Below are positions 4,791-61,626 of a DNA stretch of 64,000 nucleotides, one piece after another (positions within the stretch are counted from its first letter, which is position 1; the number at the start of each line of letters is the position of its first letter). The DNA is from Octopus sinensis. Lineage: Eukaryota. A model generated the notes under the pieces. That model was not told where the DNA came from, did not search any database, and saw nothing but the letters and a program-made list of their open reading frames with translations. Where the stretch lies: positions 33,170,001 to 33,234,000 of the forward strand of contig NC_043007.1 in the NCBI RefSeq assembly GCF_006345805.1, given 5' to 3'. The translations under genes and the position numbers were made by a program.

Positions 4791-5389
4791 TCAGCAAGGC
4801 CCCAGTCAGTTGCAGGGTCAAACTTATGTACATTTGGTAATCATTTTCGGCTGAGTATTCTGAAACAACGTGAAATAAGTGCCTTGCTCAAGAGTGCAAC
4901 GCACTATCCGGTCCGAAAATTGCTGACCTTATGCCAAAATTTGAAAGCAATATATTCACCGTATTTTGTAATTCATACCCACCAAATTCATAGATCTCTC
5001 TGCTTCAATTATCAACTCCAGATATTCCACACCCGTTATGTTATTTTGTTTTTATTTTTGTCCAGATATGAGTCTTTAGAAAAATTCTGATCGGTCAGAT
5101 ATTTGCGGCCTTACCAAAGCCCATTCGAACATGGGGGAACAGCTCATGCGGCCATTATGAATTTTCTGACGTCATGACAAAATATTCTGATTCCCGGAAT
5201 TGAATATTCATTTCTTTTAACTTAAAACGCTTCTATGAATGCATTTCATATAGTCTACTAAAAACCTAAAAGATATTTTCAATTTAATTTTTGTACCATT
5301 CTTGTTTTATTATCTTAAACTACTATTTTTTATGTGAGACACTGTGAGCGTTGCTTTGTGTCAAAGGTTTCCTTTAGAGTTGTTGCTTG

Positions 5390-5687
5390 TTCCTTCTCGA
5401 ACCATGCCTGATTCATAAGGGCCGGTTTTTTCTGGTTTCACTGGCGTATAAGTTCTCCGCCTGGACGGGACGTCGATCCGTCGCTGGTGAGCTGCAAGAT
5501 GCAGGAGGAAAGAGTGAGAGAAAGTTGTGGTGAAAGAGTCAGCAGAAGTTCGCCAAAACCTTCTACCGGAGCCGCGTGGAGCTTATGGGTTTCGCTCATA
5601 AACACACACATTGCCCTGTCTGAGATTCGAATCCGCGATCCCTTTACCGCGAGTCCGCTGCTGTAACCACTAGGCCATGTACCTCCA
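5390..5687 (-). mobile_element. tRNA-derived SINE family C
   Basis: Minus strand tggaggtacatggcctagtggtt...ggattcgaatctc; homologous to 25577 copy. Confidence 0.8.
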
Positions 5688-6288
5688 GAGAAGCTAATTT
5701 TAATGATAGACTTAGACTTAGTTTGTCATTAACTCAAGGTCTCAATAGTCCGAAGCTTAATTTAGTTCCCATGACTCTCCCCTCCGAACGGGACGCCAGT
5801 TCGTCGAGGGTTTAACATTTCAAAGATTGCTGGAAATCATTTACAGCTGAGTGAAGTGGAGCAACGTGAAATGCAGTGCTTTGTCCAATAACATAAAACC
5901 CTACCATGTCAACAAATTGAAACTATGACCTTACGTGTATGACCTTACGTGTATGCAACCCTCTAAACATCAGTCCCACGCGCTACTATGTATCTGAGTA
6001 AAAAGAAAAGTCATCAACTCCGTTGGGTGTGAAATAGAGTACGCTTTTACTTTTTTACTGGTTTCTGTCATTTGACTGCGGCCATGCAGGAGCACCGCCT
6101 TGAAGGACTTTAGTCGAATAAATCGACCTCAGGACTTATTTTTTTGTAAGCCTAGTATTTATTCTATCTGTCACTTTGGCCCAACCGCTTAATTACTGGG
6201 ACATAAACACACCAGCATCGGTTATCAAGTGATACTGGAGGTGGTCAAACACAGTCACAAAGAGATACACACATGAACACACACACAA

Positions 6289-6337
<49 letters not shown>

Positions 6338-6502
6338 ATAGTTATCGCCATACTAATATGGCATTCTTATAAAAATAAGAAAAAAGCTGTCCGCTTATTA
6401 GCTCCATGAGGCCATCGCCTTAAGTTAGCTATTTGATACACAAACTGTATCCATATAACCTTCGAACAAGGGAGGTCAGTCGCTCCACACTACTGACCGG
6501 CA

Positions 6503-6544
6503 GCTACAGACGCGTTTCGGGGTATTGCCCCTTTTCAATGCAGC
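6503..6544 (-). ncRNA. Minimal type I hammerhead ribozyme, U3-A8 core
   Basis: GCUGCA UUGAAAA GGGG-CAAUA-CCCC GAAA CGCG UC UGUAGC. Confidence 0.8.
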
Positions 6545-6726
6545 GTAGCCAGCCAGTAGGTGTCGCTTCCGACAATCTCTGTTCGATGGTTTTATTTACC
6601 TAGTTTCGGTGGAATACATCCACTTGTTTTCAATAAATAGAATATTAAAATACTAAGTCTCTCTAAACTAGGTAAATAAAACCATCGAACAGAGATTGTC
6701 GGAAGCGACACCTACTGGCTGGCTAC

Positions 6727-6766
6727 GCTGCATTGAAAAGGGCAATACCCGAAACGCGTCTGTAGC
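6727..6766 (+). ncRNA. Minimal type I hammerhead ribozyme, U3-A8 core
   Basis: GCUGCA UUGAAAA GGG-CAAUA-CCC GAAA CGCG UC UGUAGC; stem I 6 bp, palindromic stem III. Confidence 0.8.
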
Positions 6767-8929
6767 TGCCGGTCAAGTAGTGTGGAGCGACTGACCTCCC
6801 TTGTTCGAAGGTTATATGGATACAGTTTGTGTATCAAATAGCTAACTTAAGGCGATGGCCTCATGGAGCTAATAAGCGGACAGCTATTTTCTTAATTTAT
6901 AAGAATGCCATATTAGTATGGCGATAACTATTATTTCCGGGAACGCTGGCCGCTGTTCTCTTTTAGAGAGACTTAGTTATTTTAATATTTCTATTATATA
7001 TATATATATATATATATATAGATATAATATATATATATATATATATAGATACTATATATATATATATATATACACGACGGGCTTCTCTCAGTTTCTGTCA
7101 GTCAATTCCACTCACAAGGCTTTGGTCGGCCCGTGGCTATAATAGAAGACACTTGTCCAAGGTGTCACGCAGTGGGGCTGATCACGGAACCATGTAGCTA
7201 AGAAGCAAGCTCCTTACCACACAGCCACGCCTGTCTTTCATTATTTTTGCGAGTTTCAGCACGAAAACCGCGGTCATGCTGGAGCACTGTGGTTAGTTTT
7301 GTTACACTTTCACTACTTGAAACCTCTTCTATGTGGTATTTAGGGAATGAGGGAGTCTGATGTTTTATAAAGATAAAATGCATTATGTCATTTTGGAGGC
7401 TGTGCCTGTTACACAAGGAATTTACTGCGCCTCAAACAGCGCATTGTAAATCATCTCACAGAAAGTAGTGATTCAGTATAGAATTATATGATTTTAAAAA
7501 AAGTCCCAGAATGAAATTGACAACGTATTACATTAAAGAATTGAAGTATTGTTTAATTTAAGATTATATTACAAAAGTCCAAAGCAAGAAAATGAAACTA
7601 CATCCCCAAAACTGCTGAAACGGGTTTTCAGAAACATGGACGAATAAGGGGTTACTCTATAGTCACCTCTTTTCTTAAACCTACTCTGGCCTGAGGTGGC
7701 AGTACATGTAAAGAGCCGCAATTATTATTCAATTAGAAGATGGCCCTGTGGTTAAGGCATACAGGACTCGGAAGCGGGCTTGACCCACAGCCGTTCGGCA
7801 TTTAAACCGGCTATAACCGGCACTCTTTCCTCCTGCATCTTGCAGCTCACCTGCAACAGACCGGCATCCCGTCCAGGTGGGTAACCTATACGCCAAGGAA
7901 ACCGAGAAACCGGCCCTTATGAGCCAGGGATGGTTCGAGAAGGAACAAACAAAATTAGCTTCTACCTACAATTAGTTTTGCCTGATCCACTGCGTCCCGT
8001 GTTAGCTAATTTCTACGTCTGTCTGCGTGTGTTCATGTTTGCCGATATAAAACCAATTTTATGTCAATTGGTGTAACTTAGATTCCCGATAAAGAGTGGT
8101 CGATGAAATAAGCACTAGGGTGAAATAAATACTAGAGTAGATAAAATCACCGATCACTAAAACCAAAAAAAATTCAATGATAGAAAGTGCTACAGCTTGG
8201 CCACAGTCCATTATGGAATAGAATATATAAGCCACTCGAGAGGAAAGTGTAGTGACTCGTCTCACCTAAAGAATATTAAGATATAAAGTTTGAGATTAAA
8301 ACGAACAGATTTAATGCAAAATGTAAGCAAATAGCATATTGCTAACCATAAACACATTTTAAAAAAATATTCTTGAATATTAAGTGAAACCAGCTTGCGT
8401 TGCACTAAATATAATGACGATGTAGCAAAAAAAAAATTGGTTGAGGGGAAATATATGTAATTGATAGGAATCACCTATTTTACCAAACAGCCAAGTAATA
8501 ACCGAAAACGTTAGAATACAGAAAGAAAAATCAATAAAAAGATAGCAAGAAAACTCGTATTATAGGTAGTTACTAGAGAAAGATAAGGCAAAAAATATAT
8601 GAGAATTTACGAAAAAGTATTGAACGAAAAAAGGAAAATATAGTGCCAGCAAATGAAATATGTTTCATAATAAGAAAATAGATTCAGAGTTAGGAAATAC
8701 TATGCAAAATGGAAAGAAATTCTGTGCAAAAAGGTAAGAAAAAGTCAGTAAAAGAAGAGAAAATTAGTTGGAGGATAAATCTAAAGAAATAGCAAATGTA
8801 AATTTTTAAAAAATGGTATAAAATGATTTGACTAACAGAACGAAATATTTTAAATGAAATAGAATATTTCGAGAGGAGAAACAAAGTTATCTTGGTATGT
8901 ATGTGGTTTTTCGTTTTACAAGATTTTAC

Positions 8930-9329
8930 TTTTTTTTTTTATTATTTTTAACTGGAAGTTAAAGATTGAAACTATTAGAGTAGATGGGTATGAAACTTAT
9001 CTACTAACAAAGTACTTTGCGTGTGGTAGAGAAATCGCTTTGTAATTCCGTAGTTTCGGGTTCAACCTTGCTTTTAACATCTCTCGGAATAATACCTATT
9101 TCTTTACTACCCACAAGGGGCTAAACACAGAGAGGACAAACAAGGACAGACAAACGGATCAAGTCGATTATATCGACCCCTGTGCGTAACTGGTACTTAA
9201 TTTATCGACCTCGAAAGGATGAAAGGCAAAGTCGACCTCGGCGGAATTTGAACTCAGAACGTAACGGCAGACGAAATACCGCTAAGCATTTCGCCCGGCG
9301 TGCTAACGATTCTGCCAGCTCACCGCCCT
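8930..9329 (-). mobile_element. SINE family A with a ~150-bp 3' extension and A-rich tail
   Basis: Full SINE A 9090-9329; 8945-9090 is shared with 42046-42190; T-run on + strand at 8930. Confidence 0.85.
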
Positions 9330-20990: not shown

Positions 20991-23900
20991 ATAAACTTAG
21001 ATAAACTTAGATATGTTTCGACCAGAGATTGGTCCAGGCCATGTCTAACTTAATAGCACCACCTGATAGGATTATTCGAATCCTGTTTAAGTCAAGTTTT
21101 GTTCAAGTAGTGAGTTCTTGTTGGGTGAGTTGTATCCAGTTTTGTTGAAGTAGTGAGTTCTTGTTGGGTGAGTTGTATCCAATTATGGGTGGCTTATCTG
21201 GTATTCTTTGAAGGAATCTATCCAGACTCTGTTTGAAGTTGATGCGATCATTTTCCTCTTTGATCTCCCTCGGGACAATGTTAAATAGGGCAGGCCTGTT
21301 GAGGAAAAGAAATTATGTTGCAGTGTACATGTATGTTGTGATCTTGAATTTGGCAGGGGACGTATAGCCCGTGGTCCAAGTCTTGGATGAACCTTGAAGC
21401 TAATGTTTAGGTCGTTTGGGCAAAGTTGCGGTTATATTTTCCACATCGTACAAATGATGTACCACTCACGGCGACGCTGGAGTGAGTAAAGTTTCAAGGC
21501 TTTAAGGCGATCCCAATAATCGAGAGCAGCCATGCCTTCAATTGTTAGTGAGAGCCCTCTGGGGTGACTCAATTCTGGAGATGTTTTGTCTTGTGTGAGG
21601 AGACCACAGTGGGCAGCAGTATTCGAGGTGTGGCCGTACAAAGGAGGAAAAAAGTGGTATGATGACACCTTGTTTCTCGGACCGGAAAGTTCTTAAGATC
21701 CAGGAACTCATCCTACGAGCTATATCGACCTTCTTGTTGATGTGTGCACTCCAACTGAGATCGTCATCAACAATTACACCCAGGTCTCTGATATTGTTAG
21801 AGGCTGTGAGCGGTTCCCCTGAAGAAGAGAGTATGGTTGTTTTAGTGAGGAATTTCTTCCAAAATGCATCAGCTCAAATTTTCCCTCATTCAGTTGCATT
21901 TGTTTCTGTCTGCCCATTGACTCACAGCATATAGATCAGACTGGAGTTGAGTTCGGTCTGCTTCTTCATTGACGATTTGCTGGAGCTTAGTGTCATCAGC
22001 GAATATTTTCACTTTGCAGTGATGTACGACACTGGAAAGGTCGTTTACGTAAATTATGAAGAGTAGCGGACCCAAAACAGTTCCCTGGGGAACACCGCTG
22101 GTGACTTTTGCTGGGTTTGAGTGGACTCCATCAACTACAACATGTTGTGTTCTATTCGCCAGGAAATACTGAATCCAGCGTAGAACTTTTCCACGGATTC
22201 CAACATTTGCCAATTTTGAGAGTAGGATGTTATGGTCTACCCTGTCGAACGCTTACTGAAGTCAAGATATATGACGTCAGAGTTCGAACCTGTTCCCAAG
22301 GCTTTGAGTACATCTTCAATGTGGTGTAAGAGCTGTGTTAGACAGTCCCTGCCACAGCGAAAGCCATGCTGATTTGATTTAGGAGTTTGTGGGTCTCCAG
22401 GAAGTCAGCTATCCTTGATCTTAACACTCTTTCAAAACACTTAATGATGTGGGGGTGAGTGAGATTGGGCGGCGATAGTTGACTGCGAGGGATCTGTTCC
22501 CCCTTTTGAAACCGGGATGACCGACTGGGATAGAAACTGTTTCGGTATATAACCTGAGTCTAACGAGTTTCTCCAGAGGTTGGTCAGAGGGACTGCAAGT
22601 TGATATCTACATTCCTTCAGGAGACTAGCGGGAAATCTATCAGGGCCTACAGCAGAGTAATGTTTGACCTCATTTATTGCTGCTACGATGTCGGTGGCAG
22701 TGAAGGTTATGTCTGCGATTTGTGTTGGGAGTCAGCTTCGTTCGTTTCCCTCACATCAATATCAGTGGAACACTGAAGACAGAGCAGTAATTGTTTCTGC
22801 AGTTTTCTGCCATTTCTTTAGCATCGTGTTGGGGAATGCCGTTATCATCAATCAATGGCCCAATGGGTGAGACAGTGGTTCTATGCTTAATGCATAAGAT
22901 AGAACACTTTTGGGTTCTGTTTGATGTTTTTGATTACTCATTGTTCCTCCACAGCTCTTTGATTTCAATGGAGGTTTTCATGTTAGTCTGCAGATGAAGT
23001 TTTTCCAGCTCTAGTCTTTTCATTGTTGTTGAATGTGGATGTTGTGTGTGGGAATATTTTAATTGGTTGATTTTTTTGTTGAGTCTTTTGATGCGCCTGA
23101 TGAGTGTTTTTTTCTTTTTAGGGAGCGGGTCTGTTTGTGTTAGTAGATTTTTGGGAGCGTGTTTAGAGCATGTATAGGTGACAATGGTTTCAAAGTGCTG
23201 CCACGCGGTCTCAATATGAGGGGAATTGAGAGTAAAAGACCAGTCGATGGAAGACAGATCCTTTCTGATTGTTCCCAGTCGCTTTGTGGAAGTTTATGTT
23301 GTCAAATGGGTGCCATGGAGTGGGATTGCTGGTTTGGTTTTTATATGTCGGGAATTAAGATTGCAGAGTACCGTGTCGTGGTCTGAGAGGAGAGTATTTT
23401 CGACTGAAATGCTGTGAACGTAGCTAGAGTGATTGGTCAATACCAGATCCAAGATCGTTTTATTCTGTCTCGTTGGTCAAGCACTAGCTGAGTCAGGAAA
23501 TACTCATCCATCAGATTAAAGAGCAGTTCTGCTGCTGCCCTATCTGATGTAGAACACTTGCCTAACTTCGGAGTATTTGTGGGCCAGTTCACATGAGGGA
23601 GGTTGGTTAAAATCACCCATCACTAGTATGTTTCCGGAGTGGTACTTCCGAAGGAAGGACTTGACTTTGCTAAGGCACTCTTCAAGTACTTTAGAGGTGC
23701 CTGGGGAGGCCTGTAAAGACCAACAATGGTTATGTCCTTGGCTTTGTTGTATAGTGATACCGATTCACAGTAGCCATTGGAAAATGTGTCCTTGGCATCA
23801 AGTGAAAAGGAGTCATGGATAAAGATGGCTGTCCCTCCCTTATTTCGGTCTGTGCGATCCGCACGAACAATGGTGAAATCTTTTATTTTCACCTCTGCGT

Positions 23901-24097
23901 CCATATGGGTGTTGTTCAGGTGAGTCTCGGTAAGGATAAGAAAGAAGGGAAGCAATGTGCCATTTCGCAAGCCAACTCTCTATATATGGGATCTTCCATT
24001 TTTGGGCAATAATTGATGGGTTGATGCCACGTACATTTAACAGGAATGTCGAGGTAAGGGAAGTTGGTAATGGGTGAGTGGTCCTTGTGATTTGCAT
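20991..24097 (-). mobile_element. Decayed CR1-clade LINE ORF2 (APE endonuclease + reverse transcriptase) with 3' UTR
   Basis: EN: LLNVRG, LTETHL, RADR...GGTAIFI, GLYRPP; RT: SGVPQGTVLGPLLFIIYVNDL, FADDTKL; C-term LDYWDRLKALKLYSLQRRRE; many frameshifts; 10-bp tandem tail at 20991-21010. Confidence 0.92.
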
Positions 24098-24673: not shown

Positions 24674-25452
24674 ATAGGTGTAGGAGTGGCTGTGTAGTAA
24701 GTTGCTTGCTTAATAACCACATGGTTCCGAGTTCAGTCCCACTGCGTGGCACATTGGGCTAGTGTCTTCTACTATAGCCTCGGGCCGACCAAAGCCTTCT
24801 GAGTGGATTTGGTAGATGGAAACTGAAAAGAAGCCCGTCGTATATATGTATATCTATTATATAAAATCTCTTCTGTCTGTGTTTCTTTTAAGATTTCGGG
24901 CATCCTCCATCCGATTGCGCTCAAATTTGCTATGATGATAACGATGGTATCAGGGCGTGTATAAGTCTTGAAAAATTTACGAAAATCGATTCCAGATAAG
25001 AATACGATCGATAAAGCCGTCGGAACGTGCATTTGTACGTGCAAGTACATCCGCTGTTGCAATCGATACTACGCGTACGCGAGAAAAATGGACGTGAATT
25101 TTGCGCAAATAAAGCGGGCTGTCTTGAAATAATGCCACAAAATGTGACGGTCGGACAAGTTATTTTGAGAAAATTTGGTTTAAATGTTTGACAACTCAGC
25201 ACCCTCCATTGGACGGGGGGCATTTTGCTCGTGTATATATATGTGTGCGTTTGTGTGTCTGTGTTTGTCCTCCCAACATCGCTTGACAACCGATACTGGT
25301 GTGTTCACGACCCCCGTAACTTAGCGGTTCGGCAAAAGAGCCCGATAGAATAAGTACTAGGCTTAAAAAGAATAAGTCCTGGGGTCGATTTTCTCGACTA
25401 AAGGCGGTGCTCCAGCATGGCCACAGTCAAATGACTGAAACAAGTAAGAGTA
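24674..25452 (+). mobile_element. SINE family B, interrupted by a Helitron
   Basis: Head 24674-24850 and tail 25232-25452 match intact copies. Confidence 0.88.
24853..25231 (+). mobile_element. Non-autonomous Helitron
   Basis: 5' TC(tattatataaaa), subterminal GC hairpin ccctccattggacggggg, 3' CTCG (CTAG variant); inserted between A and T with no TSD. Confidence 0.7.
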
Positions 25453-60660: not shown

Positions 60661-60999
60661 CTTTGTTCTTTTATTTGTTTCAATCATTTGAATGGGGCCA
60701 TGCTGGAGCACTGTCTTTAGTCAACTAAACCGAACTCAGATCTTATTGTTTGTAATCTTAGTACTTATTCTATTAGTTTCTTTTGCCAAACTGCTATGTT
60801 ACAGGTACATAAAGATACCAGCATTGGTGGGGTTTCAAACAAAGACACACACATATATATATATACACATATATATATAAGATATAAATATTTAGAAATG
60901 AATGCGTGGCATTCAATCATATAATAATATAAATAATTAAAAAATACATATGTATATATACATATATGTAGATACATACATTTATATGTATATATATAC

Positions 61000-61260
61000 A
61001 GGCCGTTTGCCAGCTCTGTCTGGCCCCCGTGCCGGTGACACGTAAAAGCACCATCCGTTCGTGGCCGTTTGCCAGCTCTGTCTGGCACCTGTGCGGGTGC
61101 ACGTAAAAAGCACCCACTACACTCACAGAGTGGTTGGCGTTAGGAAGGGCATCCAGCTGTAGAAACATTGCCAGCTCAGACTGGGCCTGACGAAGCCTTC
61201 CAGCTTCACAGACCCCAGTTGAACCGTCCAACCTATGCTAGCATGGAAAGCGGACACTAA

Positions 61261-61290
<30 letters not shown>
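61000..61290 (+). mobile_element. SINE family F with (GAT)n tail and ~62-bp internal tandem repeat
   Basis: ggccgtttgccagctctgtctggc twice; ggttggcgttaggaagggcatccagc. Confidence 0.85.
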
Positions 61291-61291
<1 letters not shown>

Positions 61292-61472
61292 GCATATATG
61301 CTTACAGGACATCACAAAATGTAAACATGAGATACGAAAACAACATGAAATACAAAGACAAACTTGGGTATGCAAACAATGAGAGAAACGAATGGAAAAC
61401 AAGACAAGTAAAATAAAGAATGACCCTTCATCAGTTGTCGGCTGTCCATCTACTCCTCATCTACTTTAGAGC

Positions 61473-61626
61473 AAGCTTCTTTCAGTTTTCATCTACCAAA
61501 TCCACTCACAAGTTGCTGGTTGACCTGAGGCTATAGTAGAAGACACTTGCCCAAGGTGGCATGCGGTGGACTGAACCTGGAATCGTGTGGTTGGGAAATA
61601 AGCTTCTTACCACACAGTCATGCCTG
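61473..61626 (-). mobile_element. SINE family B head half, diverged
   Basis: gcttctttcagtttt...agaagacacttgcccaagg...cttaccacacag. Confidence 0.8.

Follow-up and report, generated by a model that had tools for sequence, protein, structure and literature searches.

How two copies of a non-coding unit with a hammerhead motif came to lie head to head at one site in the genome of Octopus sinensis, and which class of element they belong to, are the questions raised by this locus. We addressed them in a 64,000-nt stretch of contig NC_043007.1, analysed as a whole and hereafter called the window. All positions are those of the window, and its strands are given as (+) and (−).

Layout of the inverted pair

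The insert spans positions 6333-6995. Its left copy (335 nt; 6333-6667, −) reads tail (6636-6667), spacer (29 nt; 6607-6635) and arm (6333-6606), so that the tail forms its 5' end, and its 3' end, which is the end of the arm, meets a (TA)n tract with no extension. The right copy (331 nt; 6665-6995, +) reads arm (6665-6936), linker (25 nt; 6937-6961) and tail (6962-6995), and its 3' end likewise meets (TA)n. Linker and tail together (6937-6995, +) form a 59-nt extension found at one 3' end only, the counterpart of the 'tail' of Penelope-like elements (PLEs). Both copies are 5'-truncated. Their 3' ends point outward into (TA)n, and their 5' ends meet centrally at a head-to-head junction of three bases common to both copies (6665-6667), a microhomology at which the turn contains no palindrome.

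The two arms could be aligned end to end with 2 substitutions and 4 single-base indels. The tails (6962-6995 on the + strand and 6667-6636 on the − strand) were identical in 32 of 34 columns, with 2 indels (E = 4.5e-7), and the linker and the spacer occurred once each. These alignments agree with the arm-linker-tail and tail-spacer-arm arrangement described in an earlier reading made from the letters alone (the sequence-only reading), and its estimate of a unit of about 360 nt was accurate: reconstruction gave exactly 360 nt with either arm, at a GC content of 0.42. The left and right copies end 25 and 29 nt, respectively, before completing one 360-nt lap, and 58 nt at the centre of the inverted pair are unpaired. 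If transcribed, the inverted arms would form a 270-bp duplex. No further copies of the unit were found elsewhere in the 64-kb window.

The unit is non-coding. Its longest stop-free frame, over six frames and three laps, measures 59 aa, and the 360 nt contain no ORF start of any length. No ORF of at least 100 aa overlaps positions 5100-9200, and the RT/GIY-YIG ORF of an autonomous EN+ PLE was accordingly absent from this interval. Elsewhere in the window, no protein of comparable length matched a 152-aa non-repetitive frame at 2342-2800 (−) at E 0.001. The broken frames at 21538-23979 (−) are apparently not of PLE type, and we take them to resemble an endonuclease/reverse-transcriptase LINE.

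The insertion site

(TA)n tracts border the insert on the left (6292-6332) and, with few interruptions, on the right (6996-7072). Outside them lie the left (6060-6290, +) and right (7070-7234, +) parts of an interspersed host repeat, presumably SINE-like (an octopus SINE). Each half had 16 matches in the window, and these gave 12 colinear pairs, one of them the locus under study; in 8 of the remaining 11, a TA-rich stretch of 17-31 nt separates the halves. Since both flanks are colinear in the 11 other copies, 6333-6995 is an insertion into the internal microsatellite of the repeat, interrupting the (TA)n middle of a dispersed host repeat. A target-site duplication is unreadable within the TA tract.

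Two of the other host-repeat copies, at 24845-25231 and 60828-61475, whose halves are separated by 386 and 647 nt, point to insertion or expansion at the TA hotspot there as well. Farther out from the insert, an inverted pair at 5383-5516 and 7821-7952 (85% alike) was set aside, being two copies of a different dispersed repeat.

The flanks also bear on whether the inverted pair exists in the genome at all, the sequence-only reading having named a fold-back assembly artefact as grounds for abandoning its claim. An artefact of this kind, or a fold-back in a long read, would be in keeping with the position of all 8 differences between the duplicated parts in or beside base runs, as consensus errors would give, and with the central junction of this locus being absent among the listed contig pieces of the public runs described below. 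The flanks contradict it: they are not mirror images, and together they continue one host repeat. Given these unmirrored flanks and the single-copy spacer and linker, the locus is explained neither by a fold-back during sequencing nor by simple folding-back of a cDNA. Similar inverted junctions were, moreover, present in three other runs. We therefore consider an artefact very improbable, and the colinear flanks confirm two oppositely oriented copies at one insertion site.

A type I hammerhead motif in each arm

Folding and a descriptor search identified a type I hammerhead motif in the left arm (6503-6544, −), with a helix I of 6 bp, a helix II of 4 bp and a helix III of 1 bp plus a palindromic CGCG loop. 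Its core lies at 6538-6532, and cleavage is predicted after C6509, between 6509 and 6508. The corresponding motif of the right arm (6727-6766, +) has its core at 6733-6739, a helix II of just 3 bp and a predicted cut after C6760. The core reads UUGAAAA, with U3-A8 replacing C3-G8. The 6-bp helix I sits beneath an internal loop and a long closing stem, and helix II bears a 5-nt loop and is followed by GAAA. The internal loop above helix I and the 5-nt loop 2, candidates for loop 1-loop 2 tertiary contacts, may be akin to the loops of Schistosoma hammerheads.

A strict hammerhead descriptor matched the − arm but none of 20,000 dinucleotide-shuffled versions of the unit. The + arm escaped detection because the descriptor demands 4 bp in helix II. 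Local folds of the hammerhead regions gave z-scores of −5.1 and −3.9, and in a circular fold of the unit helices I and II paired with probabilities of 0.94-1.0. Rfam returned no match at the gathering score across the 64-kb window, and the 29 matches by E-value, mostly to miRNA-hairpin models, included no hammerhead family; the miRNA matches are due only to the long hairpin.

U3-A8 is described as a natural covariation of the core (PMC3088659), and U3-A8 cores have been reported from PLEs (PMC4209133). In the latter source, canonical metazoan hammerheads have 6 bp in helix I, 4 bp in helix II and a short helix III, palindromic and active as a dimer. As modelled, the arm hammerhead fits this canonical metazoan shape and has retrozyme-type geometry. 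Indeed, the − arm shows every element of the retrozyme hammerhead: type I, a 6-bp helix I, a 4-bp helix II, a helix III of 1-2 bp with a palindromic loop, and a conserved core.

Two more 6-bp hairpins occur in the arm, at 6816-6832 and 6906-6921 (+), both mirrored in the left arm, with pairing probabilities of 0.98 and 1.0, respectively. The second, just upstream of the arm-end 3' terminus, could be a candidate protein-binding or start signal. Four hairpins at a spacing of about 90 nt suggested that the unit might consist of four old ~90-nt hammerhead repeats. We rejected this reading because the quarters of the unit, compared pairwise, were no more alike than shuffles (no pair beat them; best, 136 of 2,000).

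A second, degenerate motif

The sequence-only reading counted one hammerhead per unit and overlooked a second, degenerate hammerhead-like motif that spans tail, spacer and arm (6593-6639, −). It has the same U3-A8 core as the main motif (6633-6627), followed by three extra bases, a 5-bp hairpin, GAAA (6607-6604) and a CTAG palindrome; its 6-bp helix I is one base out of register, and its flanks are U-rich and AU-rich. The relaxed descriptor, which was written after the motif had been seen, found it in 0 of 20,000 shuffles. Judged by its letters, the motif resembles the minimal-hammerhead consensus of PLEs. It has neither the G10.1 pair nor a proper cut site, and we therefore read it as a relic that is predicted to be inactive.

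The right copy begins 5-9 nt upstream of where the degenerate motif would cut, and we rejected the idea that the motif had produced this 5' end, as the position does not fit. The degenerate form seems to be the form of the whole family. In the contigs of four public runs, no change of at least 3% was listed at the core of this motif.

The family in public sequencing runs

For the abundance check, we sampled 46 words and counted a run if it held at least half of them, as did 20 of the 24 listed runs (11 studies, 8 organism labels). Contigs from 4 of those 20 runs, none of the runs being recorded as RNA, were aligned on positions 6600-6995 only. Matching contigs numbered 3,052, 1,619, 1,292 and, in the run labelled X13, 17, depth being no measure of copy number. 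Such a multitude of variant contigs points to a large family. X13 may be an RNA run, but its contigs do not count as evidence that the unit is transcribed. Exact scans for a 22-nt motif yielded 0 loci in metagenome contigs, viral contigs and prokaryote genomes, and hence neither a second locus with flanks nor an autonomous partner from these collections.

The spacer-to-arm joint was present in all four runs (5, 3, 5 and 1 contigs) and the tail-to-spacer joint in two of them (3 and 2 contigs), so the permuted order is a feature of the family. The sequence-only reading had proposed a search for the tail-spacer-arm order beyond the locus and had let its claim depend on the outcome, which is now positive. 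A 192-nt contig of X13 crosses from the spacer into the arm and reaches 6809, and tail-like loose ends at 6636 were seen in X1 and X13. None of the listed contigs spans the whole unit or carries two same-strand hammerheads in tandem, so it is through junctions only that head-to-tail arrays are indicated.

Among the 15 joints listed of 17, six connect the antisense spacer to the sense arm or linker at varying points and thus represent other head-to-head junctions. Each comes from one contig with a short side of 20-29 nt and is weak by itself. In X13, a loose end departs at 6928 into (TA)n. This end, together with T-to-A changes at 6929 and 6931, fits copies that terminate at the arm end. Inner break points differ among loci, and other junctions show shorter right-hand copies. 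Loose ends at 6933-6957 in all four runs belong to a subfamily with a different linker.

The varying break points speak against a fold-back transposon or MITE with long terminal inverted repeats that moved at the DNA level. Long inverted arms and a TA target are what such an element would display. Its ends, however, would not be expected to be asymmetric, with a 59-nt extension on one side only, and the strand-specific ribozyme motif indicates an RNA intermediate. We regard a DNA-level origin as highly unlikely.

The contigs also shed light on stem II, which is GGGG/CCCC in the − arm versus GGG/CCC in the + arm. The sequence-only reading correctly saw this difference and took the pairing to be kept, with homopolymer error as its alternative. 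We rejected covariation, a private slip being likelier: the differences lie in or beside base runs, and the contigs favour the letters of the − arm. At 6886 and 6895, the − arm's letters accounted for about 100% of contig depth in all four runs, and at the checked differences the left arm (6333-6606, −) carries the family-majority letters. An extra G after 6739 and an extra C after 6747 were listed in three of the four runs; loose ends with GGGG occurred in X1 and X6. In X3 the share of depth amounted to no more than about 9%, so some contigs may have GGG/CCC. On these letters, the GGG/CCC of the right arm is most likely a private homopolymer slip or an error.

Comparison with Penelope-like elements and retrozymes

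In PLE insertions, a 5'-truncated copy in inverted orientation is often present, as is an extension of 30-40 bp on one side; Naiads prefer (TA)n targets yet have no canonical hammerheads (PMC8557442). For Penelope, head-to-head is described as the commonest arrangement (PMC3846280). With an inverted, truncated head-to-head copy and an AT-rich, (TA)n target, the layout of the locus is, by analogy, itself the standard PLE insertion pattern of these two sources. Taking the EN+ PLEs together (Penelope/Poseidon, Neptune and Naiad), the locus shares with them head-to-head truncated copies, a one-sided extension, an AT/(TA)n target, a hammerhead and a microhomology joint. It differs in having no RT/GIY-YIG ORF, in an extension of 59 nt rather than 30-40, and in an intact hammerhead that is canonical instead of minimal.

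Metazoan non-LTR retrozymes are described as 170-400 nt long, with a GC content below 45% and links to PLEs (PMC7229834). Examples are the 350-390 bp repeats of mussel and the 330/350 nt repeats of axolotl (Cervera & de la Pena 2020, PMC7229834). Our unit agrees with them in size (360 nt), in GC content (42%), in being non-coding, in its one intact type I hammerhead and in the head-to-tail junction found in the family. By contrast, it has a U3-A8 core, a second degenerate motif and an inverted pair in place of a tandem array. Schistosoma has Cercyon-associated minimal hammerheads with U3-A8, some of them in opposite-strand pairs 100-700 bp apart (PMC4209133). The U3-A8 covariation and the opposite-strand pairing recur here, with cores about 200 nt apart, whereas the Schistosoma hammerheads are minimal with a long helix II, and only the relic motif of our unit resembles them.

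These comparisons bring up the possibility that the unit is merely the pLTR of an ordinary autonomous PLE, from which two heavily truncated copies were inserted, the tail-spacer-arm order having come from tandem pLTRs in the parent. The layout is indeed standard for a PLE, U3-A8 cores are known in PLE pLTRs, the relic motif looks like the minimal-hammerhead consensus of PLEs, and three X13 contigs run on 3' of the tail. Against this, the tail joins the spacer directly in contigs of two of the four runs, and the unit has no ORF start, whereas the pLTRs of Penelope and Poseidon contain the first codons of an ORF. The intact hammerhead, with its 6-bp helix I and 4-bp helix II, is also canonical as in retrozymes and not of the minimal PLE type. 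A pLTR of this sort is, in our judgement, unlikely. From its sequence, the locus appears to behave like a PLE insertion and to match non-LTR retrozymes in size, GC content and hammerhead shape; the unit is likely another retrozyme, a class already known, and a circular RNA is predicted for it.

A recent preprint argues that retrozymes derive from PLEs and are likely moved by them (bioRxiv 10.64898/2026.07.22.740005). It reaches the same conclusion on origin, and solo or monomer derivatives are common among its examples. Its basis, in the text available, is co-occurrence and pLTR homology, mainly in vertebrates, whereas ours is an insertion footprint. Inverted insertions go undiscussed in the main text of PMC7229834, where 'inverted' occurs 0 times. 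Nor does the preprint take them up in the text consulted: it never uses 'tail' or 'target site', and 'inverted' appears only in the title of a reference. Among listings of mostly open-access papers on octopus or cephalopod retrozymes, hammerheads and Penelope, no description of such a family surfaced; the giant squid genome paper, in the part consulted, only counts 235 hammerheads (PMC6962438).

A model for the insertion

We favour, at a probability of roughly 0.72, a single insertion of two head-to-head truncated copies into (TA)n, the element being likely a non-LTR retrozyme (a non-autonomous PLE) that was likely written by the RT/endonuclease of a PLE in trans. A PLE enzyme would open the TA tract on both strands and extend each of the ends. 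Of the two cDNAs, one would begin where the arm ends and the second where the tail ends, 59 nt further 3'; two such internal start sites would explain the one-sided extension. Each cDNA would be ~330 nt long, and their 5' ends would be joined through the three bases of microhomology. The enzyme would act in trans, since the unit encodes nothing and no 100-aa ORF lies nearby.

The purified Poseidon protein behaves in a comparable way: both strands of AT-rich DNA are cleaved and extended by it on unprocessed RNA, with synthesis beginning at two adjacent internal positions of the RNA, and the gap between these corresponds to the 'tail' (PMC11167929). Although Poseidon is a lizard element of another family, this two-site, two-strand activity predicts outward 3' ends 59 nt apart and microhomology-fused 5' ends.

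The inversion might instead have arisen on one multimeric RNA by LINE-type twin priming, a model able to give inversion, or by cDNA fold-back or template switching, as in the self-priming model for Penelope. A proposal of self-priming on an antisense template exists for Penelope copies in head-to-head orientation (PMC3846280), and the 3-base microhomology at the junction would suit it. The turn without a palindrome and the 58-nt unpaired centre would not. In addition, each copy has a piece absent from the other, so neither was copied from the other, and the arm end recurs elsewhere as a 3' end beside TA, which fits a fixed second start site. We consider these routes distinctly improbable.

With two-site priming by a PLE enzyme as the preferred reading, the nature of the template can be narrowed. 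Since the hammerhead cut site lies within both copies, the template would be an uncut multi-unit RNA or a re-ligated circle. On tandem transcripts, the hammerhead would normally release 360-nt monomers, probably acting as a dimer via its palindromic helix III. The multi-unit order tail-spacer-arm that the sequence-only reading had assigned to a tandem or circular template stood up, but both copies can be derived without a circle, from a linear RNA of about 394 nt (~1.1 unit) in the order tail-spacer-arm-linker-tail. On this linear template, the left copy would be a run-off to the 5' end of the RNA.

One point in favour of a circle is that both copies stop just short of a full lap; these stops are two data points, at a locus picked for its long arms, and the right-hand copies at other junctions are shorter. 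A more specific proposal, which we hold to be doubtful, is that a PLE enzyme copied circular retrozyme RNA from both cut DNA ends and was stopped by protein bound at the start site, the degenerate hammerhead being a fossil of the ribozyme of the parent pLTR. If true, the locus would be genomic proof that circular retrozyme RNA is the template for PLE RT, a step that has been proposed.

The movement of retrozymes by PLE enzymes or through circular RNA has so far been argued from co-occurrence and homology. Taken as a single locus, this is a routine repeat insertion, and it provides modest structural evidence that PLE machinery moves retrozymes. An abundant family with a PLE footprint, that is, two fixed 3' ends, head-to-head pairs and TA targets, makes the mobility of retrozymes testable by counting junctions.
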